Assembly: GCA_016187745.1 (NCBI GenBank)
Contig: JACPJC010000005.1
Location: 27,220-91,219 of the forward strand
DNA from: Candidatus Iainarchaeum sp.
GTDB taxonomy: Archaea; Iainarchaeota; Iainarchaeia; Iainarchaeales; JAXPJC01
Direction: 5' to 3'
Length of the DNA: 64,000 bases
Below, piece after piece: positions 3,921-56,906 of the stretch; position 1 is the stretch's first letter, and each line of letters begins with the position of its first letter. A program made the position numbers and the translations under genes. The notes beneath the pieces were generated by a model. That model was not told the DNA's origin and ran no database searches. It saw nothing but the letters and a program-made list of their open reading frames with translations.

Positions 3921-4355
3921 CTAGCGCTCCGGGGTACTTGTGTTGAGATAATTCCCAAAAGAAGTAGCAATAAAATCGAAATCCACAGCAGATTCTCTAA
4001 GGAGTATTATGTCTTCTAACAAACTATTGGCATTTTTTGCAGTTATTCCTAAATTTTTCAAATATTCTGGCGCACCTTTTTTTAATATTAATTTACTTTT
4101 TCCCTTATCATAAGATAGTAACATTTTTCTATCCAATAATTGTTTTAGCCGTTTTAGCTGCTCCTTTTCTTTAGGTGGTATATCATATCTCATCTCATCC
4201 AGACGCCGCCGTAAAAGCCAGTTCTCAACAAAAGTTCTCTGTTTTTGGGTTCCAAACTCCATTCTTGCCTCATTGCCCCACGTACCTTTAATTTTTCTAT
4301 ACAATGATTCATTCCCGCCGGGTCTTTTATTTCTTACCTGCACTTTTTCAAGCAT
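3921..4355 (-). CDS. hypothetical basic protein in a low-GC islet
   Basis: 144-aa ORF in an AT-rich stretch (about 3780-4400) whose composition differs from the flanking genes. No family recognised. Confidence 0.4.
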   Translation of the reverse strand: MLEKVQVRNKRPGGNESLYRKIKGTWGNEARMEFGTQKQRTFVENWLLRRRLDEMRYDIPPKEKEQLKRLKQLLDRKMLLSYDKGKSKLILKKGAPEYLKNLGITAKNANSLLEDIILLRESAVDFDFIATSFGNYLNTSTPER

Positions 4356-4405
4356 ATTATTTTTAGGTTCCCATCATTTTAAATTTATTGCTAGTAGATT
4401 CTGAG

Positions 4406-5955: not shown

Positions 5956-6207
5956 CCTTTCCGGCGTGTGCGCCCTTGCAATCTTTTCCCTGATTTCCGG
6001 GGTCAATCCCTTGCCCTTCCCCCTGAGCATTCCGCGCTGCTTAGGAAGGTTTTCAAGCGCCTTTCTCCTGTAATATTCTGTTATGATGCCCCTTATTCCT
6101 TCCCTCACAAGCTCCGCCTGGTTGCTGAACAGCCCCGAATGTATTAATTCATCCATGCTGCTTTTCAGTTCAGCGCCAATTCTTATGTGGATTAAACTAT
6201 TTGCCAT
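5920..6207 (-). CDS. ribbon-helix-helix (CopG/VapB-like) DNA-binding protein
   Basis: 95 aa. IHIRIGAELKSSMDELI...SNQAELVREGIRGII fits the RHH beta-alpha-alpha pattern. Convergent with the PIN gene and overlaps it by 36 nt. Its own TATA (rc TTTTTATAC) lies about 25 nt upstream. Confidence 0.55.
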   Translation of the reverse strand: MANSLIHIRIGAELKSSMDELIHSGLFSNQAELVREGIRGIITEYYRRKALENLPKQRGMLRGKGKGLTPEIREKIARAHTPERSEQILREHGFI

Positions 6208-6256
6208 TTTCTCCCATAACTAGGTATATCATAACAGTATAAAAATGATATAGCCA

Positions 6257-6298
6257 GTTTCACCGGCGGAATGGTCCCGAAAGTGTTTATAAAGGCCT
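6257..6298 (+). promoter_or_regulatory. second copy of the 38-nt promoter module (TATA TTTATAA at 6286-6292), leaderless for the 6315 gene
   Basis: GTTTCACCGGCGGAATGGTCCCGAAAGTGTTTATAA differs from the 5471 copy at 3 positions. TATA-to-ATG spacing is identical (29 nt). Confidence 0.55.
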
Positions 6299-6314
6299 GA
6301 AACAAGCTTCTTCC

Positions 6315-7898
6315 ATGGACTCCCTAACTCCCAATATAAGGGTGCCCGTGTCATTATCCGCCCCGGGCAAGAATGCAATTTCCAATGCTGTGCTGTATTT
6401 GTCCAATGCAGCCTATCTCCCGGAAAGGCAGGAGGTAGTTATTGAATTTTCCAACCGCGCGCAGAAAATTACAAGGCCGTTTTATTTCCTCCCATGCATG
6501 CACGTAAACCCGAACGGAAGCAGGGAGTTGCTCATCGAGCTTCTTTCAGCATATGAGAACAAGAAAATAAAATTCGGGGAATGCGGAAATAAAATAATCA
6601 GGATTACGGCAGCAACTTTCGCTGACCTGCAGAAGGCAGCAGTTATGCTCCAATCAACCCTGCAGTTAAGCCCGGTAATAATTTCCCCTGAAAGGCAGTT
6701 TTTGCTCCAGATGGGCTGGAGCTATTTTGATGCCTTTGTTTTTCCTTCCAATGAGCCTGAAAAAATTGAAGTGCCCTCAATTCCCAATGTGAAATTTGAA
6801 TTCCTGCATGATTCCACAAGGCGCATTTTCTCCTCAATGCTTAATGAGGAAAAGGCTGTTGCCTCAGGCCTTGCTGAAGCCCTGGTAAAGTCAAACATGC
6901 TCACGCTTCCAATAAACGCGCTTCCCGAAACAAAGCAGGAGATTGCCGAGGCCTGGCTTGAAAAAATATTCTTCAAACATGGCTTTGCGCTTTCCGAAGC
7001 GCACATCCCGAAAGCGCCATTCGCGGAAAGCCGGCAGAAGGGCTTCCATTCGAAGGACGCACTAATGGAAGTGAATTTCTCAGAGGTATGGCCCCTGCTT
7101 ATTACAAAATCATTCTTCAACCTGGGCTTTGAAACGCTCAATTGCGCATGCTGCGCGCCGGAAAATCTCCAATCCGGAAATTTATTTCCGAATTCGCCCG
7201 TGAATGTGAAATTCCTCGCGCACGCCAACTATTTTGAATCCATATCAGAGAGCTTCGCCCTTAACTATCATATTTCCAATCCGAACAGGGACTCAAGGAT
7301 TGCAAGGATGCAGGAATTCTGCCTGCAGGCAATTCCTGTCGGGCCAACAACAAAGGACAGGGAAATGCTTATTCCCCTGCATGACGCAAAGCAGCTGCAG
7401 GATGAAAAGTCCGCGCAGATAATGCCCTCAGGCCATAAACTTCTCTGGGGCTGCAGGAAAAAGGAGAGCTTCCTCTCTCTGGAAATTTCAGAATTGCACA
7501 AAAAGATTGCAGGGCTGGAAGCGCTTATTGCGGAAATTGAGAAAAGGCATTCGGAAAAATTCGGCCTGAACTGCTTTGCCGAACTGGAAAAAAACGAGAA
7601 ATACAATTACGCCCTGCAGAAGCTTTCCTGCCTCAAGGCTCTTTTCACATATCTGCCCCGGCATCTCGGGTGCAGGAGCTCAAGGTTTTATTCGGAAACC
7701 ATTGCGGATTCCCTGCAGGCAATAGAGAAAAGCGTGATGCTCGGCTTCAGGGAGTTTACCTCGGCGCAAGGCATAAGGTGCTTCGCATTCCGGAACAAGG
7801 CGTTCATTGAAGGCAAGGAGGCGCTTGCCATCGCAAAGGGATTTTCGGGCCTTGCAAGCCTTCCCGAGCCCTCAATCGGCAAGAGGCACGATTTTTAA
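6315..7898 (+). CDS. large conserved hypothetical protein (527 aa)
   Basis: Long uninterrupted ORF behind a convincing promoter. No recognisable catalytic motif by eye (contains SYFDAFVF and NCACCAPEN segments). Confidence 0.5.
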   Translation: MDSLTPNIRVPVSLSAPGKNAISNAVLYLSNAAYLPERQEVVIEFSNRAQKITRPFYFLPCMHVNPNGSRELLIELLSAYENKKIKFGECGNKIIRITAATFADLQKAAVMLQSTLQLSPVIISPERQFLLQMGWSYFDAFVFPSNEPEKIEVPSIPNVKFEFLHDSTRRIFSSMLNEEKAVASGLAEALVKSNMLTLPINALPETKQEIAEAWLEKIFFKHGFALSEAHIPKAPFAESRQKGFHSKDALMEVNFSEVWPLLITKSFFNLGFETLNCACCAPENLQSGNLFPNSPVNVKFLAHANYFESISESFALNYHISNPNRDSRIARMQEFCLQAIPVGPTTKDREMLIPLHDAKQLQDEKSAQIMPSGHKLLWGCRKKESFLSLEISELHKKIAGLEALIAEIEKRHSEKFGLNCFAELEKNEKYNYALQKLSCLKALFTYLPRHLGCRSSRFYSETIADSLQAIEKSVMLGFREFTSAQGIRCFAFRNKAFIEGKEALAIAKGFSGLASLPEPSIGKRHDF

Positions 7899-14958: not shown

Positions 14959-15563
14959 TCCAGTTTCTCCTTCGCGGCTTTCTCAAGCCTCTTCAAAAGT
15001 TCGTAATTCTTCCTCAGTTTGCTGTTTGCCTCATCCAGTATCTGCTTCATATATTCCCTCTCAATGAGTATTTTCGCGCCCTTTTTTACAGGCAGGCTTA
15101 TGCTTTGAGTGCCAACAAACTCCGCAATGCATTTTCCCTTCTTTGCGACTATTATGCCCCCGCGCTTTACCCCCGCATTGCGCATCACATTTAGCAATGA
15201 ATCCGCATCCCCGAGGCTTTTTGTTCCAATGTGAATTATGAACGGCTCCATCTTGAACCAGAGGGTTCCAGTGCTCTTCGCTTCCAATCCCCTCCATAAT
15301 TCAGCAAATTTAACCGCGCGGTGCCATTTCCTGTGGAAGTAGCTTTCCTCCTTTGTTCCCTTACCATACAATCCCAGAAGCATTATCCTTCCCGCGCACC
15401 CGGATGAAGTGAAAAAATTCTTTGTGGAATTTATGTAATTGCACAAAGAAAGCATTTTTTCATCAGCCTTTCCTTCCCTTACCGCATTTTCCCAGTTTTC
15501 CCTGTTGTGCAGCTTGCTCATCCTCCAGCGCTCATTTTCCGAAAAATCCATAAGCCTCTTCAT
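14955..15563 (-). CDS. taw3: tRNA wybutosine-pathway protein Taw3/TYW3-like (SAM-dependent methyltransferase)
   Basis: 202 aa containing FFTSSGCAGRIML, close to the conserved SSCSGRI motif of the TYW3 family. Size fits. Confidence 0.55.
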   Translation of the reverse strand: MKRLMDFSENERWRMSKLHNRENWENAVREGKADEKMLSLCNYINSTKNFFTSSGCAGRIMLLGLYGKGTKEESYFHRKWHRAVKFAELWRGLEAKSTGTLWFKMEPFIIHIGTKSLGDADSLLNVMRNAGVKRGGIIVAKKGKCIAEFVGTQSISLPVKKGAKILIEREYMKQILDEANSKLRKNYELLKRLEKAAKEKLE

Positions 15564-16228
15564 ATTTCAAATTGCACCTTCAGCAGTTTCATTTTTCCGT
15601 TAAGTTCGGCGAGCAGGGCATTCCCCTCTTTCAGCGGGCCGACATTTATGGATTTTGTTTTTCCAATTTCAATCTCCCCCTTCGCCTCGTGCACATGCGC
15701 GCATATGTGCAGCAGGGGCTGGAACTTCTCAATCGCCCTGCTTATTTCCCTGCAGCCGAGATGCACGCCAAATCCCGCAAGGTCAATTTTTACATTATAC
15801 GGGGGGGAATGCGTAACAAGGATTGTTTTTTTCGGGTTCGTTCCGGGAAGCAGCCCATTCAAAACTTTTTTTGCCTCCAAATCCCCGAGGCTGAACTTAT
15901 AAAAAGTGTGGTAGGGGATTGCGCCGCCAAGCCCGATGAAAGCATAGCCCCCGAATTCAATTTTTCTCTTGTGCAGGAGAATTCCCTTTTTCTCCAGCAG
16001 TTCCACAACTTGCTTGCCGTCCATGTTCCCCGGAACCGCAATTATTTTTTCCGCAAAATCCAGCTCATTTAGGACCCTTTCAGCGCTTTCAGCCATGCCG
16101 TCATCAGTTATGTCCCCGGCAATTGCAATCAAACCAATCCCGGCACCTGAAAATTTCTCCTTAAGCCTCCGCGCGGCAAGCGCATTGGAATGCGCATCAG
16201 CAATGAAAAGCACTTTCATGAAAACCAA
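15560..16228 (-). CDS. metallophosphoesterase (calcineurin-like, YfcE/MJ0936-type)
   Basis: MPP motifs: IADAHS (D-x-H), AGDITDDG (GD-x-x-D), GNMDG, THSPP, AHVHEAKG. Only 222 aa and lacks the Mre11 capping domain. ATGA overlap with taw3. Confidence 0.7.
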   Translation of the reverse strand: MVFMKVLFIADAHSNALAARRLKEKFSGAGIGLIAIAGDITDDGMAESAERVLNELDFAEKIIAVPGNMDGKQVVELLEKKGILLHKRKIEFGGYAFIGLGGAIPYHTFYKFSLGDLEAKKVLNGLLPGTNPKKTILVTHSPPYNVKIDLAGFGVHLGCREISRAIEKFQPLLHICAHVHEAKGEIEIGKTKSINVGPLKEGNALLAELNGKMKLLKVQFEI

Positions 16229-16270
16229 CCTTTATAATTTTATATCCTTAATTATATATTGGGGTGCAGA

Positions 16271-17071
16271 ATGTTAAATAAGTTTGTTATTTTGCTTCTT
16301 TTGACCCTTATGCTGGGCTTTGCAAGCGCGGACATTCTGATAACTTCCCCAATGGAAAGCCGCCTTCTCCCGAATGAAAGGCTCGAGCTCGGCTCAATTT
16401 CTCCCGGAGAAACGCTCATAATAGGCATTAATTCAGACACGGGCTACACGACCCAGCAGAAATGGAGCAGGGCGGAATTCATTGCGGAAACGCTCCCCGA
16501 GAACTGGGAATACACTAACTCAAAATACCTTGCGGATGTTTTTACACTGCAGCTGAAAGTTCCGGAAGATGCGGAAAAAGGCGCATACAATGCGAAAATA
16601 AAGCTTACAGACGTGAAGCACAACATTCCGGATGAATTTGTGCAGCTTCTTTTCTATGTTGAGGACAATTTGATAACCGCGGACATTTCGGATTTGAGGC
16701 AGGATGTGGTTGTTGGAACCGAAGCAAAATTCAAGCTCACAATAATAAACGACTCAATAGCTGAACATGAAATTTCTGTTTCCTCAACGCTCCCGAGCTA
16801 CTGGTTTGCGGAGCAGAAAATAACAGCAAAGCCGAAATCAGTAATCACAAAAACCCTTAAGGTCGATCCGAGGGTATATGGCGCAAAGCAGTTTGATTTT
16901 TACATAGCTTCAGAACAAACAGGAAAGAAAATCGCAACATTCAATGCGCAGCTGAATGTTCTCCCTACCCCCCCAAGCAAGTTCGCGTCCGGCTTCAACG
17001 GCCTTGCGTTCTTCACCCCGAACATGCTTGTAAGCTATTTCATAAACTCATTCATAAGCCTGCTTGGTTAA
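16271..17071 (+). CDS. secreted or surface hypothetical protein (N-terminal signal peptide, hydrophobic C-terminus)
   Basis: ATG at 16271 gives MLNKFVILLLLTLMLGFASA, a signal-peptide-like N-terminus, then a beta-rich body and a hydrophobic C-terminal tail. The track starts at TTG 16259. Confidence 0.5.
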   Translation: MLNKFVILLLLTLMLGFASADILITSPMESRLLPNERLELGSISPGETLIIGINSDTGYTTQQKWSRAEFIAETLPENWEYTNSKYLADVFTLQLKVPEDAEKGAYNAKIKLTDVKHNIPDEFVQLLFYVEDNLITADISDLRQDVVVGTEAKFKLTIINDSIAEHEISVSSTLPSYWFAEQKITAKPKSVITKTLKVDPRVYGAKQFDFYIASEQTGKKIATFNAQLNVLPTPPSKFASGFNGLAFFTPNMLVSYFINSFISLLG

Positions 17072-17075
17072 ATTT

Positions 17076-18662
17076 ATGGACGAAGAAATTGCCCATTATT
17101 CAAGGCAGATAATTTCCGAAATTATCTCCGGGAAGATTGCTGATTTGAAGCGGCTGAATGAAAGGAAAATGCAATTAAGCAGGGAGCTGATGATTCCCCG
17201 GCTTCCGAAAAACCCGGACATACTCGCATACGCAAAGAAAAAAACCCCGAAATTGATTTCCTTCCTCGGGATAAAGCCCGTTCGCACGCTTTCAGGGATT
17301 GCTGTTGTAGCGGTAATGCCGGCTCCGCAGGAATGCCCGGGAAAATGCATTTACTGCCCCTCAGGAAGGGCCTTCAATAAAAACTCCCCGAAAAGCTACA
17401 CAGGATTTGAGCCCGCAACAATGCGCGCTCTCCGCGCGGATTTTGACGCATTTGAGCAGACTTCCGGGCGCATAAAGCAATTGCAGATCACAGGCCACAA
17501 AACTGACAAAATAGAATTGATTGTCATGGGCGGAACTTTTCCGGCTTGCAGATTTTCCTACCAAAAAAAATTCATAAAGGAATGCACCGATGCAATAACG
17601 GGCAAAAAGTCCCGCGACTTGCAGCAGGCGCAGAAGAATGCGGAAACCTCAAAACAGCGCCTAATTGGAATTACATTTGAAACAAGGCCTGATTACTGCA
17701 AGCAGAAGGAAATTAAAAACATGCTTGCATTGGGCGCAACGCGAGTTGAATTGGGCGTGCAGAACATCGATGATGAAATTTACAGGAAAATAGGCAGAAA
17801 CCACAGCGTTGAAGATGTAATAAATGCAACGCAGCTGCTGAAGGATTCCGCGCTGAAAGTCTGCTATCACATGATGCCAGGCCTGCCCGGCAGCACTTAC
17901 AAAAAGGATTTGCATGCGTTCAGGGAAATTTTTACAAATCCGAATTTCAGTCCGGATATGCTCAAAATCTACCCCTGCATTGTGGTAAAGGGCACAAAAC
18001 TATATGATTTGTGGAAGAAGGGAGCATACAACCCTTACACAACAGAACAGGCAGCAAAACTGATTTCAGAAATAAAGCCCCTTGTTCCCAGATGGATGAG
18101 GATTATGCGCATCCAGCGCGACATTCCACTGCATAAGATCTCCGCGGGCGTTGCCCAGAGCAATTTGAGGCAGATTGTGAAGCGCAAAATGCGCGCAAAA
18201 AGCGCAAAATGCAGATGCATACGCTGCAGGGAGGCTGGCCAGCGCAGCTATCTTGAGAACGAATTTGCCGATATGGAAAAAATAAAAATCCTTTCCGAAA
18301 CCTACAGCGCAAGCAATGGCGAGGAAATCTTCATTTCAGCCGAGGACACAAAAAGGGATTTGCTCCTTGGATTCTGCAGATTGCGCATTCCAAATGCGCC
18401 ATTCATCAAACCACTTACCGAACATACTGCGCTTGTAAGGGAGCTGCACGTTTATGGCGAGCTTCTCGGATTGGGGGAGAAAAAGCCAGGCGCCTATCAG
18501 CACAAGGGCTTTGGGAAGGCGCTCCTGCAGGAGGCCGAGCGAATTGCAAATGCGCAGTATGGCATGGAAAGAATTGCAGTAATGTCCGGAATCGGCGCAA
18601 GGCAGTACTATAAAAAATTGGGTTATTCCCTTGAAGCGCCCTATGTGCTCAAATCCCCATAA
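17076..18662 (+). CDS. elp3: Elp3-like tRNA uridine(34) modification enzyme (radical SAM + GNAT/HAT domain)
   Basis: CIYCPSG radical-SAM-type cysteine cluster near residue 100. C-terminal acetyltransferase motif HKGFGKALLQEAERIA. About 530 aa, as in archaeal Elp3. ATG at 17076. Confidence 0.8.
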   Translation: MDEEIAHYSRQIISEIISGKIADLKRLNERKMQLSRELMIPRLPKNPDILAYAKKKTPKLISFLGIKPVRTLSGIAVVAVMPAPQECPGKCIYCPSGRAFNKNSPKSYTGFEPATMRALRADFDAFEQTSGRIKQLQITGHKTDKIELIVMGGTFPACRFSYQKKFIKECTDAITGKKSRDLQQAQKNAETSKQRLIGITFETRPDYCKQKEIKNMLALGATRVELGVQNIDDEIYRKIGRNHSVEDVINATQLLKDSALKVCYHMMPGLPGSTYKKDLHAFREIFTNPNFSPDMLKIYPCIVVKGTKLYDLWKKGAYNPYTTEQAAKLISEIKPLVPRWMRIMRIQRDIPLHKISAGVAQSNLRQIVKRKMRAKSAKCRCIRCREAGQRSYLENEFADMEKIKILSETYSASNGEEIFISAEDTKRDLLLGFCRLRIPNAPFIKPLTEHTALVRELHVYGELLGLGEKKPGAYQHKGFGKALLQEAERIANAQYGMERIAVMSGIGARQYYKKLGYSLEAPYVLKSP

Positions 18663-18714
18663 TATCCTACTAATTTATATATAATAATTATAGTATTATT
18701 ATAGAGGCAATTTT

Positions 18715-19062
18715 ATGGGAAAGGCACTGGTAGCAACCCTTGGCGCTGGAAGGGGGACATGGGGCCATGTTGCAAGGCTCATTGCTACAGAGGAATGGGA
18801 TTCTATTCTGCTGGTTTCAAATGAATGGGCCAAGGAGAAGTTCGCCCCCGCAAAGGAAGTGGAATGGATTCTCCTGAACAACCGCGCTGGCTTTGACATT
18901 ATAAAAGACACAATAAAGGAAAAGCTTCCTAAAGGAGAAATTGCAATAAGCATGGCATCCGGCGCGGGAAAAGAGCACATGGCGCTTATTGCTGCGCTGA
19001 ATGAAACAAACCGCACTTACACGATCGTTACGCTCACAAAGAATGGCTTAAAGTATTATTGA
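18715..19062 (+). CDS. small Rossmann-like protein with a CARF-like signature (candidate stand-alone ligand-sensing domain)
   Basis: 115 aa. N-terminal strand plus Gly loop LVATLGAGRGTW. Later ISMASGAGKEHMALIAAL resembles the CARF (D/N)-x-T-G-G-T-K-x-M...AA motif. Tentative. Confidence 0.3.
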   Translation: MGKALVATLGAGRGTWGHVARLIATEEWDSILLVSNEWAKEKFAPAKEVEWILLNNRAGFDIIKDTIKEKLPKGEIAISMASGAGKEHMALIAALNETNRTYTIVTLTKNGLKYY

Positions 19063-19091
19063 GTTTATTAAGCATTTAGGAAACTCCCGAT

Positions 19092-19451
19092 ATGTTTGAG
19101 TATGTTCTATTAGTTATTGTGGCAATTCTGGCAATCTTCCTTATTTTCCTATACAAGAAATCAAAGTCCCTTGAATTCCGGCTTTCAGAGCTCGGCTTCA
19201 GGAAGGCATCGCAATCAGTGAAATACGGCAAGCTTACGGAGCAGTGGATTCCGATGAGCAGGGATTTCCCCTACAACCCGAATGATTTCAGGTTCATTGG
19301 CAGCCCCATTGACGGAATTGTTTTTGACGATTCGGAAATAGTTTTCTGCGAATTCAAGGCAGCAAATTCGCAGCTCAACGAAAACCAGAAGCGCATCAAG
19401 CAGCAAGTGGAAAACAAGAAAGTGAAATGGCTCGAATTTAGGGCTGAATAG
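19092..19451 (+). CDS. membrane-anchored Hjc-like PD-(D/E)xK nuclease-fold protein
   Basis: 119 aa. N-terminal TM helix (YVLLVIVAILAIFLIFLY). The remainder aligns by eye to Hjc: ELGF / GSPIDGIVFDD / IVFCEFKA against KHGF / GSKKVDLVA / YLCIEVK. 29 nt downstream of the CARF-like gene on the same strand. Confidence 0.4.
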   Translation: MFEYVLLVIVAILAIFLIFLYKKSKSLEFRLSELGFRKASQSVKYGKLTEQWIPMSRDFPYNPNDFRFIGSPIDGIVFDDSEIVFCEFKAANSQLNENQKRIKQQVENKKVKWLEFRAE

Positions 19452-19485
19452 GAAATGCCACAAGTATTTTTTTATTTTATGTCCA

Positions 19486-20046
19486 TCAGGCTAAATTTCT
19501 CCTGAGCAGTATCATTACAGGAAGGTCATTTTTATGTTGTTTTCTGAGCATTTGCCTTATTTCTGGCAGCGCTGGCAATTCATCACGCAGCCCAATGCCA
19601 AGAATTCCTTTTAATTCTATTTCACAATGCTTGTCAACCTTCCATCCAAGCCCAAGAAGTGTATTAATAACAGATTTTTTTGTAGTATTTACAATAGCTT
19701 CTTCACCGCCCTTTTCCTTTATTATAAATTCCATTAATCTAAAGCACAACCTTCCGAGATTCAAACCTCGAGATACAGGCATTATTTCCCTGTGGTTAAT
19801 ATTCCATTCTTTATTATCAAGAGTTATTGCATTAAATACTGCAATTTCTTTTTTTGTCTTATCACTCAATCTCAAGCCAATGGCTCTATCAGACCCGCTA
19901 CGAATATCATTTGCAAAAATTCTTTCATCCCCCATGATTATATATTCACCTCTCCGCATTTCTCTAAAACTCGGGCTTCCTTTAGCGCGCCTGACCTTCC
20001 ATTCCTTTGGAATGTTTTTGTAAAATCTTTCATATGGCATATTCAC
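19486..20046 (-). CDS. hypothetical protein in a low-GC islet, ATGA-coupled to the 3' end of pelota
   Basis: 186-aa ORF in markedly AT-rich DNA (about 19480-20040). Its start overlaps the pelota stop. No family recognised. Confidence 0.4.
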   Translation of the reverse strand: MNMPYERFYKNIPKEWKVRRAKGSPSFREMRRGEYIIMGDERIFANDIRSGSDRAIGLRLSDKTKKEIAVFNAITLDNKEWNINHREIMPVSRGLNLGRLCFRLMEFIIKEKGGEEAIVNTTKKSVINTLLGLGWKVDKHCEIELKGILGIGLRDELPALPEIRQMLRKQHKNDLPVMILLRRNLA

Positions 20047-21086
20047 TCAACCCTGAACCTCAGGAGCGCTGCAATCCCTGTAAGCCCCTGCAGCTGCTTT
20101 CCCGCATCGCCCTCAGCGCTTATTATATGGACCTCGGCATTTGTTTTTTCCGCGCTTTCCATGAGCGCTTCCATTTTTTCCCGCTCCGCAAACAATTTCT
20201 CGTCAGTTATGAGAATTTTCTTGACAGCGCCGTAATTTATTGCATTCTGCACTTCCTTCTCCCCATAGGCAACAAGCCCCGAATTCTTTGCAAGCTCCTC
20301 GTATAATTTTGAAATGTTCCTGATTTCCTCCGCAACCGCAGTTTCCTTCAGCACGCTTTCAATAAGCCCAGACTTTACTGCCTCATTCAGCCCGGTTTCC
20401 CCCACAGAATTTGTTGCGCCCCAAACAATATCAAATTTCGCGCCTTTCTCCTCCAGATATTTCTCAAAATCCTCCTTCGCGAATCCCGGCCCCGCAACGA
20501 TTATCTTATCCGCCTTTATTTCGGAAATTTTTTTGAGTAGTTCTGAAAAATACTTTTTCTGTGCATCTTCTGTTGCGTATCTTTTCCCTGATTTTCCCGC
20601 GTGCATTTTCAGCTTGTGCTCCAGCCCGAACTGCTTCACAAGCGCAAAGTCCGCCTGCTCATCATCCATTACCAGCAAAAGCAATTGAGGTATTTTTGTC
20701 GCCTGCTCCGCCTTCTTCAGGCGCGCAATCTGATACTGCTTCAGCTTCAGTTTTTTTATTTTTATCGGCTCGTTCAAAATTATTTCAAGAGTATGGGAAC
20801 TCCCAAGCGGGGCAACATCCTCGGGCTTTGCATATTTCACAGTCCCCGAGGCGCGCAATTGCTTTGAATACTTGTGGAACTCAACCTTCTGGACGGCAAT
20901 TTCAAGGAAAAACTTCTCCCTCTTGCTTTCAGCGCCTTCATTTTCACTAACCCTGATTTTCCTAGTGCTTGCTCCGCTGAGCACATCATTCGGCTCAATT
21001 ATCCTCTCAAGATGCCAGAGGTCATCAATTGTCTGCGGCACAACCTGCAGGAAATTCTCCCCTGCATCAATCTTCAGAATGCGCAT
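20043..21086 (-). CDS. pelA: Pelota (Dom34 homolog), ribosome rescue factor
   Basis: 347 aa. N-terminal Pelota domain, central and C-terminal eRF1-like domains including the AGPGFAKEDF motif. Confidence 0.8.
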   Translation of the reverse strand: MRILKIDAGENFLQVVPQTIDDLWHLERIIEPNDVLSGASTRKIRVSENEGAESKREKFFLEIAVQKVEFHKYSKQLRASGTVKYAKPEDVAPLGSSHTLEIILNEPIKIKKLKLKQYQIARLKKAEQATKIPQLLLLVMDDEQADFALVKQFGLEHKLKMHAGKSGKRYATEDAQKKYFSELLKKISEIKADKIIVAGPGFAKEDFEKYLEEKGAKFDIVWGATNSVGETGLNEAVKSGLIESVLKETAVAEEIRNISKLYEELAKNSGLVAYGEKEVQNAINYGAVKKILITDEKLFAEREKMEALMESAEKTNAEVHIISAEGDAGKQLQGLTGIAALLRFRVE

Positions 21087-49192: not shown

Positions 49193-49696
49193 CTATTGTC
49201 TTTTATTTGATATAATGCGCCTAATCGCAGCAATTTGTGCATGTTGCTTGCCAAGAATTGTTTTAAACAATTTTACAGATTCTTCATTGCTAGTCGCATT
49301 CCTAACAAGGTTATCAATGTTGTCAAATTTATCTAGTACTTGCTGCTGCACTTCCTGCCTTTCAGGACCAGATATTTTATCAGGGTGTTGCAAATCCTGT
49401 GATAAATTAACTATATTTTGAAATTCATTGTGAATGAGGCCTCTATAATAGCGGTCCTGTGGTATCTTCTGATTAAGCCCTATTGCACTCAATGCTTCGC
49501 TCACAGCAATTCTAGTATTGAGGCCGAATCTTTTTCTAGCTGAATAGTCAATCCAGTTTCCCCCCTCTTTGGAAATTTTTTCTGCTCTACTTGCAATTTT
49601 TTGTTCATGTTTACTAAATGTTTTTTTTAAGGCTCTATCAGTCGGCCCTAGAAGGCCTCTTCTAATAATTCTTTGAATTCCCTTCGCCCCAGTCAT
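49193..49696 (-). CDS. hypothetical basic protein in a low-GC islet
   Basis: 167-aa ORF in an AT-rich stretch (about 49150-49760). No family recognised. Confidence 0.35.
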   Translation of the reverse strand: MTGAKGIQRIIRRGLLGPTDRALKKTFSKHEQKIASRAEKISKEGGNWIDYSARKRFGLNTRIAVSEALSAIGLNQKIPQDRYYRGLIHNEFQNIVNLSQDLQHPDKISGPERQEVQQQVLDKFDNIDNLVRNATSNEESVKLFKTILGKQHAQIAAIRRIISNKRQ

Positions 49697-49759
49697 TGTT
49701 TCACATTGATTTATTGTACAACCTTATTAATAACAATTTCTCATAACAAAAAGAAATAT

Positions 49760-51812: not shown

Positions 51813-51905
51813 CTGCTCTCAAATCAATTATATCTTAAGAGGTATTAATGCCTTTCGGCATATTCTTTAAATATCCTTTCAGCCATTTTATTCTCAGGAA
51901 TTGGA

Positions 51906-53039
51906 ATGCCTCGCAACATATTTGAGAATGCAGCGCTTGAGGGCGCAATATTCAAGAATGAAAGTTATCTGTATCCGGAATTCGTTCCCGAGCGCCTCCC
52001 GCACCGCGAGGCGCAGATTGATGCGCTTGTTTACTGCTTCTCCCCGATAGCAAAAGGCGCAAAGCCGCACAATGTCTTTGTCCATGGGAAAACCGGAACA
52101 GGGAAAACCGTAACAGTGAAATATGTGATGAATGAGCTGCAGGAGCACACTGACCGCGCGAAAGCGCTTTACATAAACTGCTTTGAGTTTTCCTCGCGCT
52201 CTTCTGTCCTTTCGGAAGTCGCAAACTTCATTGGCGCTGTTGTTCCAAGGCGCGGGCTCTCAACTGATGAGATATACTCAAAACTTCTTGAAAGCGCCAG
52301 GCGCCTGCAATTTACCCCCATAATCATCCTTGATGAGGCGGACCAGCTCTCAGTTCAGGGAAAGGAGGATGCCTCAAAGCTGCTTTACGATTTGCTGCGC
52401 ATAATAGAATATGAAAAAATCCGCTTCGGGATTGCGCTCATTTCAAATTCCGGGGAATTCCTTGCAAAGCTTGATGCAAGAGTAAGGAGCTCCCTTGCCG
52501 AGGAGCGCATTGAATTCGAGCCCTATTCCCCCATTCAATTGAAGGAAATCCTGAGGGAGCGCGCGGAATTTGCATTCCTTCCAAATGCGCTTGAGAATGA
52601 GGTTATAAATGTCGCTGCGGCGCACGCTGCAAAATTGGGGGGAGACTGCAGGATTGCGATTGAAAGTTTATGGAAAGCGGGAAGGATTGCGGAAAAGGAG
52701 GGCGCAGGGAAACTCACATTAAAGCACCTGCGCAGCGCCTTTGAGCTTATTGAAAGCTCCCCGGGAAGAAAGCCCGCGAATTTCCTTTCCGGAACAGAAA
52801 AGGCAATGCTCAAAATAATCCTGCAGGAAAAGCAGCTCAATTCAGGTGAACTGTTCAGGAAATACAATGAAAGCGCAGGGGAAAAGCTCAGCGAGAGGCG
52901 CCTGCGCGAAGTTGCAACCGGGCTTGAAAAAAAGCAGATAATTTCCTCAGAGGGAATAAACCTTCCGGAAAGGGGCAGGACCCGGAGGATTTCGCTGAAG
53001 ATTTCCCGGCGCGAGCTCGCGGAAAAATTAGGCAAATGA
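51906..53039 (+). CDS. cdc6: Orc1/Cdc6 replication initiator
   Basis: AAA+ Walker A VHGKTGTGKTVTV. Walker B IIILDEADQL. C-terminal winged helix. PEFVPERLPHREAQIDAL is typical of Orc1/Cdc6. Confidence 0.85.
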   Translation: MPRNIFENAALEGAIFKNESYLYPEFVPERLPHREAQIDALVYCFSPIAKGAKPHNVFVHGKTGTGKTVTVKYVMNELQEHTDRAKALYINCFEFSSRSSVLSEVANFIGAVVPRRGLSTDEIYSKLLESARRLQFTPIIILDEADQLSVQGKEDASKLLYDLLRIIEYEKIRFGIALISNSGEFLAKLDARVRSSLAEERIEFEPYSPIQLKEILRERAEFAFLPNALENEVINVAAAHAAKLGGDCRIAIESLWKAGRIAEKEGAGKLTLKHLRSAFELIESSPGRKPANFLSGTEKAMLKIILQEKQLNSGELFRKYNESAGEKLSERRLREVATGLEKKQIISSEGINLPERGRTRRISLKISRRELAEKLGK

Positions 53040-53988: not shown

Positions 53989-54948
53989 TTAAATCTGCGG
54001 CGCATAATAGATTTTTTCAGTTTTGAAAATAGTTATCCAGTTGAATTCTTTTATTATTTCAGGGAATTTCAGCCTTATTTCCCTCATCAGCTCATGGAAT
54101 TCTCTTGGTGTTTGAAGCATTGCCTCAAACTCAAGATCAGAAATGCCAATTGCCTCTGTTACAAACATTACATTCATTTTGGATTTAAGGAAAGAAATAA
54201 GTTGCAGATATTTTTCTGCAGAAAGGTCCTGCAACTGCATGAAGACCTTATACCATGTGTATCCGATTTTTGAATAATCCAAAACAACCATGTACCCCAG
54301 AATGACTTTGTTTCTTTCAAGCCTTTTTATCCTATACTTTACAGTCTTGTCTGATATGCCAAGCTTTTTTCCCATTTCAACAAGCGAGGCCCTGCTGTTT
54401 TTTGCCAATATGCTAAGAATTCTGCCGTCAATAGAATCTATTTCAAAGTGCGAGAACCTTTGCTCCATCATCAGCTCATGCAAAGAGGTTTCTTTTGTGA
54501 GATATCTATGGGAGATATGGTGCGCCCTCACAATAAAGGAAATATCAACTGTTTTGAGAAACTTCCCAAACTTAAATTTCAATGTCTTTATTGCGCCATC
54601 AAGCTCAAGCATATCTCTTGACCAGAAAATTATTAAAAGATCATATGCGCCATCAAGCCTTGTGACCCAGCCAACATCGTGCATCTTCAAAGCAAATTTA
54701 ATGATGTCATCTTCATTATAGCTGCCTTGCAGCTTTATCCAAAGCCTTGCACTCTGCCTCTGAAGCTTGAAAACATCAATTACTGCATAGTATCCAAGAA
54801 TTATTTTGTTGTACTCAAGTTTTTCAAGTCGCTGCTTTACTGCCTGCTTTGAGAGCCTTACTTTTTTAGCTAAAGCTGAAATGGGCTGTCTTGAGTCTTT
54901 GTCCAGTTCAGCCAATAGTTTTCTGTCTATCAAGTCTAGCTTATACAT
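53989..54948 (-). CDS. tandem-duplicated Lrp/AsnC-type regulator (two HTH + RAM units in one chain)
   Basis: LDLIDRKLLAELDKDSRQPISALAKKVRLSKQAVKQRLEKLE and, about 160 aa later, IDGRILSILAKNSRASLVEMGKKLGISDKTVKYRIKRLE. Confidence 0.6.
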   Translation of the reverse strand: MYKLDLIDRKLLAELDKDSRQPISALAKKVRLSKQAVKQRLEKLEYNKIILGYYAVIDVFKLQRQSARLWIKLQGSYNEDDIIKFALKMHDVGWVTRLDGAYDLLIIFWSRDMLELDGAIKTLKFKFGKFLKTVDISFIVRAHHISHRYLTKETSLHELMMEQRFSHFEIDSIDGRILSILAKNSRASLVEMGKKLGISDKTVKYRIKRLERNKVILGYMVVLDYSKIGYTWYKVFMQLQDLSAEKYLQLISFLKSKMNVMFVTEAIGISDLEFEAMLQTPREFHELMREIRLKFPEIIKEFNWITIFKTEKIYYAPQI

Positions 54949-55316
54949 ATATTGACAATTGTAAAAAAATATTAATAAATCTTTCTATTAGTTCTGTAAA
55001 ATAATAGGAATTCTTATAAATCAGAATGAAGGAAGATGTGTATGGTGGAATAATGAATAAATGGTTAAAATCCTTGACAAAAGAGAGAATAGAAAAAGAT
55101 GTGAGAGGCGAACGCTGCTCATCTCCGCTTGAAAGGCAGTTGAGGGGCGGGCATGATTGCCCCTATCCTTAAGGTATGCGTATGCAAGAGAAAAATCCTT
55201 GGTTGCTTAAAAGGCGCAGAGAAAGGCAAAAAGAATCAATACAAAAGCGCTATGCCTCGGCATCCGACCAATGCAGGCTTCATACGATTTGACTACAAAA
55301 CTCCCGGCTGATTTAA

Positions 55317-56906
55317 ATGCAGATTCAACTAGTTAGGCTTAGAGACGCAAGGACAAATGATGTGTTGCATTTCCCAAAGGTGGAAAGCCTGGCCCTTGGC
55401 TATCTGGCTGGCTTTTTGAAGAGTAAGGGGCTTGAGGCAGAAATCATTGATGAAGAAGTTATGGGTTTGCAAAGGAAGCAAACAATTGAAAGCCTCCAAT
55501 GCAATAGCGACATAATTGCCTTTACAGCAATTGCAAAATCACAAATCTATTCCATACTTGAAGTGATTAAAGAGTTGAAAAAGAATGGAAATAAAGCACA
55601 CATAACTATCGGCGGCCAATTTGCAACCTTTCTTTTCAGGGAGCTCCTTTCCCTTGAGAATAAATTTGATTCCGTTGTTCTATATGAGGGCGAGGAAACG
55701 CTTTTTGAGCTTGCAAATGCCCTTAATAATGAATTTGATTTGGGCTCCATTAAGGGCTTGGCATTTAAAACTTTCAATGGACAAATAAAGCAAAATCCTT
55801 TAAGGCCTTTAATCTGCAATTTGGATTCACTCCCATTTCCTGCAAGGGATACTTTGCCTAAAGTTATTGAAAATGGCGGCTTGCCCATTATATCTTCCAG
55901 CAGGGGCTGCTATAATCGCTGCTCTTATTGCTCAATAAGCCAGTTTTATTCAGGGCCCGGAGGAAGTGCATTTCGCTACAGAAGCGCTGGGAATGTCTTG
56001 GCAGAATTGAAGCATTTGAAAGAGGAATTTCCCGAAATTAGCGATATTTGGTTTGTTGATGATAATTTTGTTGTTCCTGGAAAAAAGGGCTTGGAAAGAA
56101 CAGCAAAGCTTTGCAGAGGGATAAAAGATTTGGATTTGGGAGTTGACCTTAATATTTATCTCAGGGCAAATCAAATCAATGGAAGGCTCTTGAAGTTATT
56201 GGATGAATGCAGTGTCAGGTCTATTTTCATCGGCGCTGAGGCAGGAACAAATTATACATTGCAGCAAATTTTCAAAAAGAACCTATCAATTGAACAAACA
56301 AAAAGGGCAATAAAATTATGCGGCCAGAGGGGAATAAATGTTGACCCCGGCTTCATAATGTTCCACCCGTGGAGTACACTTAAAGAAATTGAAAGCAATA
56401 TTCGCTTTTTGGAGGAGATTGGTCAATTTACCCTGTATGGGATTGTAAGCTTTTTGACTGCTTATAAATTCACGCCGATTGGAAAGGAAATGCTTTCGGG
56501 GGAAAGAACATACAAAAAACCCATTTTCAAATCAAAAGAGCTTATTCAAGATACAGTGCCATATGAAATAGCCGATGAAAAAGCAGAGGTGCTGCTCTGC
56601 CTAACTTTGAAGGCATTTGAAGAATTCCACAAACTGCCTGAGCAATTTGCAAAATTAAAGCAGGAAATAAGGAAGATTAGGTCAATCAATAAGGAAAAAG
56701 CAATGGCACTAGATAAAGAATGGACTATTAGGGTTAATGCGATGAATAGGCAGGGAATGGCTTTCTTTAAAGAGCTATTCAGATTCATTAAAAAGGCAGA
56801 TTTAAATGACAAATCAATAAAGCCGTTCTTTGGGCATTTCAAATTAAAGATAAGAAGCTATGTTGCGAAAGAATCAGGAGAAATAGAAAATTTGACCAAG
56901 AATTAA
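55317..56906 (+). CDS. B12-binding-domain radical SAM protein (class-B-like)
   Basis: N-terminal cobalamin-binding Rossmann-like domain, then a radical SAM core (SSRGCYNRCSYCSISQ). 529 aa. Confidence 0.7.
   Translation: MQIQLVRLRDARTNDVLHFPKVESLALGYLAGFLKSKGLEAEIIDEEVMGLQRKQTIESLQCNSDIIAFTAIAKSQIYSILEVIKELKKNGNKAHITIGGQFATFLFRELLSLENKFDSVVLYEGEETLFELANALNNEFDLGSIKGLAFKTFNGQIKQNPLRPLICNLDSLPFPARDTLPKVIENGGLPIISSSRGCYNRCSYCSISQFYSGPGGSAFRYRSAGNVLAELKHLKEEFPEISDIWFVDDNFVVPGKKGLERTAKLCRGIKDLDLGVDLNIYLRANQINGRLLKLLDECSVRSIFIGAEAGTNYTLQQIFKKNLSIEQTKRAIKLCGQRGINVDPGFIMFHPWSTLKEIESNIRFLEEIGQFTLYGIVSFLTAYKFTPIGKEMLSGERTYKKPIFKSKELIQDTVPYEIADEKAEVLLCLTLKAFEEFHKLPEQFAKLKQEIRKIRSINKEKAMALDKEWTIRVNAMNRQGMAFFKELFRFIKKADLNDKSIKPFFGHFKLKIRSYVAKESGEIENLTKN

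Follow-up and report, generated by a model that had tools for sequence, protein, structure and literature searches.

To our knowledge, almost every CARF domain acts in type III CRISPR signalling, either as a sensor or as a ring nuclease; the main exception is RtcR. The stand-alone ring nucleases of the CARF type, Crn1 (Sso2081/Sso1393) and Csx20/Csx16, belong to type III CRISPR loci, and ring nucleases have been identified by their position within such loci (PMC12409355). In Can2, Card1 and VC1899 (DUF1887), a CARF domain is fused to a PD-(D/E)xK nuclease, and the proteins are activated by cA4, the product of a type III CRISPR complex. The hallmarks of CARF are a Rossmann-like core of six strands, the last two of which pair as a beta-hairpin, and the signature [DN]x[ST]xxx[RK], whose conserved basic residue directly follows strand 4 (PMC4012209). 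CARF proteins are further expected to form homodimers with cyclic oligoadenylate or another nucleotide as ligand.

The second family of interest here, PF10107 (COG4741, [quoted passage not shown]), is widespread in archaea and bacteria and occurs in a few phages. We know of no experimentally determined function for this family, which has been predicted since 2005 and never characterised. Its strongly hydrophobic N-terminal helix was described by Feder & Bujnicki 2005 (PMC1189080), and the family has also been covered in PMC3424549. The family was formerly listed in COG as “predicted secreted endonuclease”, and secretion was among the options weighed by Feder & Bujnicki; with three topology predictors, the nuclease domain came out as cytosolic (PMC1189080). 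A CARF partner is mentioned in neither survey (PMC1189080, PMC3424549).

In this study, we analyzed a locus in which a small protein with a predicted CARF fold lies next to a PF10107 nuclease. The window, that is the whole stretch of 64,000 nucleotides under analysis, comes from a tiny archaeon of the Iainarchaeota (Diapherotrites, DPANN), and both genes are chromosomal. A sequence-only reading had interpreted the pair as a module of a CARF-like sensor and a membrane-anchored nuclease similar to the Holliday junction resolvase Hjc.

Results

The three open reading frames are found where the sequence-only reading had placed them. Gene 1 (18715-19062, forward strand, 115 aa) encodes a stand-alone minimal protein with a predicted CARF fold, gene 2 (19092-19451, forward strand, 119 aa) a membrane-anchored minimal PD-(D/E)xK nuclease of PF10107/COG4741, and gene 3 (19486-20046, reverse strand, 184-186 aa) a low-GC ORFan in the variable interval between gene 2 and pelota. 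The spacing of 29 nt between genes 1 and 2 was also given correctly. ELP3 (17064-18662, forward strand; radical SAM and GNAT domains according to Pfam) is kept 5' of gene 1 in Iainarchaeota loci and forms the upstream flank of a syntenic block, the conserved downstream flank of which is pelota (20043-21086, reverse strand; identified by Pfam eRF1_1/2/3 and synteny). The AT-rich spacer between ELP3 and gene 1 contains a TATA-box-like element, TTTATATATA (18674-18683, forward strand), about 36 nt 5' of the gene 1 ATG, a putative promoter element of gene 1 as judged from the letters, and the T-rich spacer ATTTTTTTATTTTA (19466-19479) between the convergent genes 2 and 3 is a possible archaeal terminator. 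ORC1 is encoded within the window as well, 33 kb from genes 1 and 2. As had been claimed, no CRISPR-like array was found in the window, and neither PADLOC nor the neighbour families revealed a cas gene or a nucleotide cyclase; Cas10 was not seen in the window or in the locus flanks.

Gene 3 indeed lies in AT-richer DNA (GC 0.369, against a gene mean of 0.456 with sd 0.034). Its supposed ATGA coupling to pelota is a GTGA overlap with a GTG start, and the deposited 184-aa protein (P0391) uses an alternative start, an ATG 2 nt past the pelota stop. We rejected gene 3 as part of a system with genes 1 and 2: it is an ORFan that matched only itself in 5.8 billion proteins, is missing from all 80 related loci compared below, and sits at a variable insertion spot, the interval between gene 2 and pelota ranging from -4 to 3274 nt across loci.

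The AF2 model of gene 1 (pLDDT 93.8) has six strands (residues 3-8, 30-35, 50-53, 75-79, 102-108 and 111-114) interspersed with four helices and closes with a hairpin, and thus reproduces the six-stranded Rossmann-like core with a hairpin of the last two strands that is characteristic of CARF domains. Solved CARF domains are its nearest structural neighbours, the top matches being the CARF domains of Can2/Card1, which are there fused to PD-(D/E)xK nucleases. At the sequence level, gene 1 has no Pfam, NCBIfam or PADLOC match at E<=1, profile searches with its family against the PDB (33 and 106 sequences) gave nothing significant, and the sole recurrent sub-threshold Pfam family, Csa3_N, appeared for 5 of 106 relatives at E>=0.04. 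It was the structure alone that placed gene 1. The earlier description of the protein as CARF-like is borne out by AF2 fold, structural neighbours and motifs, but not by a significant match to a curated CARF profile. Going by the model, the gene 1 family has a CARF fold, and it is without annotation in databases.

Two loops carry conserved motifs. Motif I, LGAGRGTWGH (residues 9-18; 18739-18768, forward strand), occupies the b1-a1 loop and has the family consensus LGxGKGTWGH; L9, G12, G14, W16, G17 and H18 are invariant among 33 sequences, and G12, K13, G14 and W16 are conserved at 73-77% among 106 diverse relatives. In the pattern G-[KR]-G-[TS]-W, T/S15 is retained by the set of 33 sequences but by only 58% of the set of 106; it lies about 6 residues past the end of strand 1 and could be the equivalent of the polar S/T residue that CARF proteins have at or after the end of that strand. 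Motif II, SGAGKEHMA (residues 82-90; 18958-18984, forward strand), spans the b4-a4 loop and the start of a4, with conservation among the 106 relatives of 0.92 for S82, 0.99 for G83 and G85, 0.98 for H88 and 0.75 for K86. Its S82-G-A-G-K86 segment matches the [ST]xxx[RK] part of the CARF signature, including the basic residue after strand 4; the upstream N, present in 85% of the broad family and replaced by S79 here, is offset by -3 instead of -2. The conserved residues coincide with the canonical small-ligand pocket and not with any obvious surface patch. Gene 1 lacks an effector domain.

At least 586 genome loci carry a member of the gene 1 family, which forms 295 clusters at 50% identity and consists almost entirely of stand-alone proteins of about 115-135 aa. 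True fusions are absent among the 150 listed family representatives. Longer members had been considered as Rosetta-stone evidence, but those that were checked are chimeras or start-site artefacts: P0317 joins gene 1 residues 1-75 mid-sequence to an ORC1 AAA+ domain, without the SGxGKEH half, and others have methyltransferase or transposase fragments attached or mis-called starts.

For context, 80 related gene 1 loci were compared with 12-kb flanks, 38 of them of the Iainarchaeota type and 42 from other lineages, mostly Woesearchaeota/Nanoarchaeia and Methanofastidiosum. The neighbour varies by lineage: a PF10107 nuclease in Iainarchaeota, ORC1/Cdc6 in Woesearchaeota/Nanoarchaeia, and in Methanofastidiosum an immediately adjacent LarA-type racemase, with an XPB-type helicase 1-2 kb downstream. 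In Woesearchaeota/Nanoarchaeia, about 13 loci have the ORC1-type gene (NCBIfam E=7.5e-54) directly 3' of gene 1 on the same strand, at a gap of about -7 to +50 nt, and 19 loci have it no more than about 1.6 kb away. The recurrent neighbour families of the 80 loci include no cas or cyclase genes, no phage or plasmid copies of gene 1 were found, and none of its viral structural matches was convincing. A reading of the locus as a defence island was rejected, as these negative findings and the missing CRISPR array oppose it, and as PADLOC gave no match for gene 1 and just a weak one for gene 2 (HEC-02B, E=0.006).

As a PF10107/COG4741 protein, gene 2 is unremarkable. It matches the profile with 74.7 bits (Pfam gathering cut-off 23.8; E=9.8e-21), and all 120 homologues listed carry PF10107. 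The N-terminal TM helix reported earlier (about residues 4-22; 19101-19157, forward strand), followed by the basic stretch KKSKS, is real and conserved: the median 19-residue Kyte-Doolittle maximum in the family is 3.11, and residues 2-55 are modelled as a helix, with pLDDT 95-98 in the TM part. The anchor had been called unusual, yet it is the defining trait of this family (PMC1189080). The nuclease core, as delimited by Pfam match, conservation and model, comprises residues 39-117 (19206-19442, forward strand) and contains E50, D74 and E87-F-K89. I73-D74 and E87-F88-K89 are invariant in the family and E50 is nearly so, fitting the E-(V/I)D-E(V/I)K motif of PF10107. Of the catalytic positions proposed earlier, D74 and E87-x-K89 were recognised correctly, but the Glu of “ELGF” (E33) varies within the family, and the acidic position that is kept in the first helix is E50. 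The modelled core has the order alpha-beta-beta-beta-alpha-beta (b-b-b-a-b after the long helix) and matches VRR-NUC/FAN1, NucS and SfsA nucleases, VRR-NUC/FAN1 being nearest, whereas no Can2 or Card1 nuclease domain is among the best 60 structural matches. With few residues and a neutral or acidic character (M-x-E...), the N-flank of the TM helix does not look like the n-region of a Sec signal, and in most members the helix is followed by basic residues. The charge bias is modest: the C-terminal flank is the more positive one in 68% of the family, and the bias is absent in 32%. The nuclease site most likely faces the cytoplasm.

Of the 38 Iainarchaeota-type loci, 34 (from 34 species-level genomes) have genes 1 and 2 as neighbours, with a median gap of 33.5 nt (at most 11 nt in 12 of the 34, at most 100 nt in 26). 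Since they share a strand and are so closely spaced, they are probably co-transcribed. These loci are syntenic over the whole ELP3-gene 1-gene 2-pelota-ABCE1 block, and in two loci (L031 and L036) gene 1 resides in the same frame of genes while unrelated genes take the position of gene 2. In the other lineages, gene 2 lies within 6 kb of gene 1 in none of the 42 loci. The proposed two-gene module is therefore conserved as a pair of neighbours in one lineage only, and the adjacency is a lineage-specific, operon-like arrangement in a larger syntenic block. A dedicated sensor-effector module is possible, but nothing beyond the synteny within the lineage supports it.

Discussion

On balance, we consider it probable that gene 1 represents a new, CRISPR-independent family of solo CARF proteins that lies beside a known nuclease and acts as an autonomous unit, not as a dedicated sensor for gene 2. 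The lack of an effector domain and the housekeeping neighbourhoods without cas genes in several archaeal lineages both argue for autonomy and for independence of CRISPR. The analysis established the fold assignments, the motifs, the distribution, the synteny and the family of gene 2. By analogy with all solved CARF proteins, gene 1 is most likely a homodimer, in which the G-K-G-T-W loop after strand 1 and the S-G-x-G-K-E-H loop after strand 4 would form a pocket that may bind, and possibly cleave, a small nucleotide ligand. Gene 1 would then bind a ligand or act as a phosphodiesterase, and in its design it would most resemble a ring nuclease of the Crn1/Csx20 type. In gene 2, a signal-anchor helix at the N-terminus leads via a helical stalk to a minimal PD-(D/E)xK nuclease, the E...D...ExK site of which is intact, and the two genes stem from families whose distributions are otherwise separate. 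Two observations are counterpoints to autonomy: the tight same-strand coupling in 34 genomes would fit a functional partnership as well, and the CARF domains that match gene 1 best, those of Can2/Card1, are nuclease-fused.

Such a partnership could take the form of a split Can2/Card1-like pair, in which a gene 1 dimer senses a nucleotide messenger and activates or restrains gene 2 by direct contact, as a CRISPR-independent module at least in Iainarchaeota. The close same-strand spacing, the intact catalytic residues of gene 2 and the absence of an effector domain in gene 1 itself are consistent with this idea. We nevertheless regard it as somewhat unlikely. The pairing is confined to loci in which the entire ELP3-to-ABCE1 block is syntenic, it does not extend to any of the 42 loci from other lineages, and gene 1 persists in two loci where gene 2 has been replaced. 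PF10107 is widespread and its published surveys name no CARF partner, the fold of gene 2 resembles VRR-NUC/FAN1, with no Can2 or Card1 nuclease among its best 60 matches, and the window and the recurrent locus neighbours show no cyclase, cas gene or CRISPR array. It is unlikely, in our view, that gene 1 is a vertically inherited, CRISPR-independent CARF signalling or ring-nuclease core gene of DPANN (Iainarchaeota, Woesearchaeota/Nanoarchaeia) and Methanofastidiosum, gating gene 2 in Iainarchaeota and wired to ORC1/Cdc6 in Woesearchaeota. Its housekeeping task would then be to sense a nucleotide messenger or to destroy it, with genes 1 and 2 as a split, Can2-like pair in Iainarchaeota; if true, CARF would have a pre- or non-CRISPR use that connects nucleotide signalling with DNA transactions in archaea with reduced genomes.

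The ORC1-type genes directly downstream of gene 1, the PF10107 nuclease that follows it in Iainarchaeota and the XPB-type helicase in Methanofastidiosum could also point to an accessory of DNA transactions, which would use its CARF-like fold for protein or nucleic-acid contacts with the neighbouring enzyme. This is very unlikely, as every one of these adjacencies is confined to one lineage and may reflect inherited synteny, Methanofastidiosum has a racemase immediately next to gene 1, ORC1 is distant in the window, and the conserved residues of gene 1 mark a small-ligand pocket and not an obvious surface patch. DPANN archaea have reduced nucleotide biosynthesis. An exported or anchored gene 2 with its nuclease outside the cell might break down DNA from the environment or a host to scavenge nucleotides, in line with the historical COG name, the secretion option in the literature and the third of the family without the charge bias (32%). 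We give this idea little credence, given the N-flank, the basic residues after the helix in most members and the published topology predictions. A nuclease outside the cell would make regulation by a cytoplasmic gene 1 impossible.

The preferred reading, a solo CARF family, gives gene 1 its wider interest: a confidently modelled CARF fold with a conserved pocket occurs in housekeeping loci of hundreds of DPANN and Methanofastidiosum genomes. As the family has no cas genes among its recurrent neighbours, no effector domain and no annotation, this suggests a CRISPR-independent cellular role of the CARF fold. If the ligand is a cyclic oligonucleotide, this would imply nucleotide signalling, or a defence against host signalling, in genome-reduced symbiotic archaea. 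At 115 aa, the protein is very small and easily expressed, and thus suited to ligand discovery. Gene 2 is less notable, but offers a clean archaeal example of PF10107.

Compared with known systems, gene 1 differs from Csa3 and RtcR-type CARF regulators in having no HTH or AAA+ output domain. It has no detectable sequence similarity to Crn1, Csx20 or Csx16, is shorter than the solved Crn1 chain 7ygh (178 aa), has a His (H88) and a Trp (W16) that are nearly invariant in its motifs, and is found, in the loci examined, in chromosomal housekeeping contexts of DPANN and Methanofastidiosum and not near cas genes. While Can2, Card1 and VC1899 join sensor and nuclease in one polypeptide, genes 1 and 2 encode separate ones, without a type III CRISPR context and paired in a single lineage, and the nuclease is a TM-anchored, VRR-NUC/FAN1-like PF10107 protein. 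The likeness of gene 2 to Hjc (PF01870) holds at the level of the PD-(D/E)xK superfamily, the D/ExK blocks of Hjc corresponding to D74 and E87-x-K89, but Hjc itself was matched neither by profile nor by structure. Within PF10107/COG4741, gene 2 is a short version: although its 119 aa match only positions 73-158 of the 159-position profile, and the middle residue of its ExK is Phe where the family motif has E(V/I)K, gene 2 shares with this family the TM helix, the minimal core and the motif.

A predicted CARF fold in gene 1

Gene 1 (18715-19062, + strand, 115 aa) belongs to a family that escapes every curated model at the sequence level. It has no match at E≤1 in Pfam, NCBIfam or PADLOC, and profile searches against the PDB returned nothing significant. 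AlphaFold models the protein with high confidence (pLDDT 93.8, pTM 0.88) as six strands alternating with four helices, the final two strands forming a hairpin. Structural matches (scores in brackets) are to Can2 (8bao, 12.6; 8q3y, 12.0; 7bdv, 11.1), VC1899 (1xmx, 12.3), Csa3 (6wxq, 11.8), Card1 (6wxw, 10.9), Csm6 (8jbc, 10.7), Can1 (6sce, 9.7) and the Crn1 protein Sso2081 (7ygh, 9.5). The 2014 census (PMC4012209) recognizes CARF domains by three features: a Rossmann-like core of six strands in which β5 and β6 form a hairpin, a serine or threonine following strand 1, and a [DN]x[ST]xxx[RK] signature that puts a basic residue right behind strand 4. In the model, G12-K13-G14-(T15)-W16 follows strand 1 and S82-G-x-G-K86 lies directly after strand 4. 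Judged by this model, gene 1 largely fits the CARF definition and is a real, unannotated CARF-fold protein with conserved pocket loops. Fold, conserved loop positions and the matches to Can2, Csa3, Card1 and Crn1 bear out the CARF call that the sequence-only reading had made by eye.

The family is strongly conserved. A database search found 120 homologues of about 115 aa (40-96% identity), and searching 1.84 billion proteins exhaustively with a profile resolved it into 295 clusters at 50% identity, 180 of them with E<1e-10, nearly all members being 110-135 aa long. Among 106 diverse relatives (28% mean identity), conservation is highest at S82 (0.92), G83 and G85 (0.99 each) and H88 (0.98), and reaches 0.75 at K86. 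The only Pfam family that recurs among them is Csa3_N, below threshold (5 of 106, best E=0.04). No true domain fusion occurs among the 150 listed family representatives, the longer “fused” members being chimeras or proteins with mis-called starts. One such candidate, the 279-aa protein P0317 of the representative library, was rejected as a genuine fusion with ORC1: residues 1-75 of gene 1 run straight into the middle of the ORC1 AAA+ domain, the SGxGKEH half is missing, and the protein is probably a deletion or assembly artefact across the gene 1-ORC1 junction. Searches of phages and plasmids gave no homologue, and no viral protein was convincingly related in structure. A search of the literature, the 2020 CARF census aside, turned up no description of the family.

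Gene 2 is a PF10107 nuclease

Gene 2 (19092-19451, + strand, 119 aa) starts 29 nt downstream of gene 1 and matches PF10107 over residues 39-117 (E=9.8e-21, 74.7 bits, cut-off 23.8). The domain is present in all 120 listed homologues (207 homologues at E≤0.001); PADLOC gave only a weak match (E=0.006). The catalytic motif is intact, with D74, E87 and K89 invariant and E50 nearly invariant in an alignment of 34 family sequences. Every aligned member has a hydrophobic N-terminal helix (family median Kyte-Doolittle maximum 3.11). The AlphaFold model (pLDDT 87.4) has a single long helix, residues 2-55, that combines anchor, stalk and core α1, followed by a β-β-β-α-β arrangement, the minimal PD-(D/E)xK core.

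The sequence-only reading had described an Hjc-like nuclease with an unusual membrane tether. The helix is borne out by the family alignment, whereas the likeness to Hjc holds at the superfamily level but not at the family level. The proposed catalytic Asp and ExK stand; the Glu of “ELGF” (E33) lacks conservation, and the first acidic residue that is conserved is E50. The tether is not unusual, since a strongly hydrophobic N-terminal helix was published for COG4741 by Feder and Bujnicki (2005), together with an “absolutely minimal core”, an E-(V/I)D-E(V/I)K motif and a nuclease domain that HMMTOP, TMAP and TMPRED place in the cytosol (PMC1189080); it is a known hallmark of the PF10107/COG4741 family. 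The family, which also appears in the 2012 PD-(D/E)XK survey (PMC3424549), is thus already known, though not experimentally characterized.

Relatives with 30-34% identity occur in a few Flavobacterium and Acinetobacter phages. These PF10107-type domains are annotated as endonuclease in Flavobacterium “immuto” jumbo-type phages and in an Acinetobacter phage (phage records MW353175-7 and NC_055915, 9657-9914; CAKLQH020000003.1 and CAKLQF020000004.1).

Locus and neighborhoods

The positions of genes 1 to 3 agree exactly with those first read from the sequence. ELP3 (17064-18662, +) lies on one side of the trio and pelota (20043-21086, -), followed by ABCE1, on the other. Ahead of gene 1 is an AT-rich spacer containing a TTTATATATA element; the spacer behind gene 2 is T-rich. 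The best database relatives come from Candidatus Diapherotrites / Iainarchaeum MAGs, which places the window in a DPANN archaeon.

We mapped the window genes onto 80 species-level loci with relatives of gene 1, out of at least 586 matches. In 34 of 38 Iainarchaeota-type loci, gene 2 follows gene 1 on the same strand, with a median gap of 33.5 nt (at most 11 nt in 12 loci and at most 100 nt in 26). Shared strand and short gaps make co-transcription of the two genes likely in Iainarchaeota. However, the same 34 loci keep the whole block of YfcE-like phosphoesterase, 270-aa protein, ELP3, gene 1, gene 2, pelota and ABCE1, and the adjacency is therefore inseparable from general lineage synteny. 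Gene 1 remains in its ELP3-to-pelota frame in two loci where gene 2 is replaced by unrelated genes, a purF-like amidotransferase (L031) or DHH- and HD-type genes (L036). In the 42 loci of other lineages, the 6 kb around gene 1 never contain a PF10107 gene. The two genes of the proposed module are operon-like neighbors only in Iainarchaeota; elsewhere gene 1 is conserved independently, in housekeeping contexts.

In Woesearchaeota/Nanoarchaeia, the gene most often found directly downstream on the same strand encodes an ORC1/Cdc6-type AAA+ protein (NCBIfam ORC1-type, E=7.5e-54), at about 1.6 kb or less in 19 loci and about 50 nt or less in roughly 13. In L051, L056, L057, L059, L062, L068, L069, L074, L077, L079 and others, gene 1 lies at ~6001-6345 and the gene for the ORC1-type replication initiator starts at ~6335-6392; the gap of ~-7 to +50 nt is as tight as the coupling of genes 1 and 2 in Iainarchaeota. 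This arrangement may be the sign of an operon close to a replication origin. The ORC1/Cdc6-type gene of the window (51849-53036, +; phmmer E=4.8e-33 to the Woesearchaeota neighbor) is ~33 kb from gene 1, so the two are no longer linked in this lineage. The order downstream of gene 1 in Methanofastidiosum is LarA-family racemase, ArsR, small ORF, XPB helicase.

The co-localization of gene 1 with a YfcE-like calcineurin-type metallophosphoesterase (15560-16228, -), three genes upstream in Iainarchaeota, spans two phyla, the enzyme's gene lying within ~1.5-3.5 kb of gene 1 there and in at least nine Woesearchaeota/Nanoarchaeia loci (L051, 8249-8920; L054, 7310-7981; L056, L057, L059, L060, L068, L071, L079), whose proteins match the window protein at E=1e-16 to 1e-23. 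The 270-aa protein (16259-17071, +) is hydrophobic in an N-terminal segment and at its C-terminus, and its Pfam matches (DUF4625, NPCBM_assoc) are no more than weak hints. Most Iainarchaeota loci keep it between ELP3 and the phosphoesterase, and it is probably a lineage-specific surface protein. Three contigs with the archaeal block (L024, L034, L041) come from MAGs labeled Thaumarchaeota, Chloroflexi and Firmicutes, probably through binning or labeling errors rather than real cross-domain occurrence.

Gene 3 (19486-20046, -, 186 aa) does lie in AT-richer DNA (GC 0.369 vs a window gene mean of 0.456 ± 0.034). Its supposed ATGA coupling to pelota is in fact a GTGA junction, or an ATG 2 nt past the pelota stop, where the deposited 184-aa protein P0391 begins. 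Gene 3 matched only itself among 5.8 billion proteins and has no counterpart in the 80 loci. It sits in a gene 2-pelota interval (19452-20042 in the window) whose length in Iainarchaeota (L001-L037) varies between -4 and 3,274 nt, a spot of recurrent insertion or variability. For these reasons we regard it as a strain-specific low-GC ORFan and exclude it from the gene 1/gene 2 pair. Four other genes are similarly GC-poor (0.358-0.387), at 3924-4373 (-), 49196-49723 (-), 53992-54984 (-) and 55317-56903 (+), and are possible further recent acquisitions.

Possible functions

Like all solved CARF proteins, gene 1 would dimerize, and a small nucleotide would be bound in the pocket of the two conserved loops. 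As gene 1 has no output domain and the characterized domain-only CARF proteins are the ring nucleases Crn1, Csx20 and Csx16 (PMC12409355), the most economical reading, towards which we lean slightly, is that gene 1 works autonomously, binding a ligand or acting as a phosphodiesterase, with S82, K86 and H88 as candidates for the catalytic or binding residues. Gene 2 would, in this reading, act on nucleic acid on the cytoplasmic side of the membrane. In gene 2, a short N-flank of neutral or acidic character precedes the helix, and in most members the basic residues come after it; this fits a signal anchor with a cytoplasmic C-terminus better than a secretion signal, although the bias is modest (68% of family members). 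Export of gene 2, a separate question of topology, we consider improbable.

The tight coupling in Iainarchaeota, and Can2 and Card1 being the best structural matches of gene 1, would suit a split Can2/Card1-like sensor-effector pair confined to that lineage. We find this doubtful: the adjacency cannot be told apart from synteny and is absent from other lineages and where gene 2 is replaced, and the nuclease fold of gene 2 is not of Can2 type. Moreover, neither cas genes nor nucleotide cyclases are among the recurrent neighbor families of the 80 loci, the window has no CRISPR-like array, and neither survey of PF10107, widespread in archaea and bacteria, mentions a CARF partner (PMC1189080, PMC3424549). 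That gene 1 is instead an accessory of its DNA-handling neighbors (ORC1, nuclease, XPB) seems a long shot.

Gene 1 is the part worth keeping: it represents a solo CARF family of minimal size that sequence comparison does not reveal, with a wide distribution in DPANN archaea and Methanofastidiosum and no CRISPR association. Gene 3 is an ordinary ORFan, and the architecture of gene 2 is exactly that published for COG4741 (PMC1189080).
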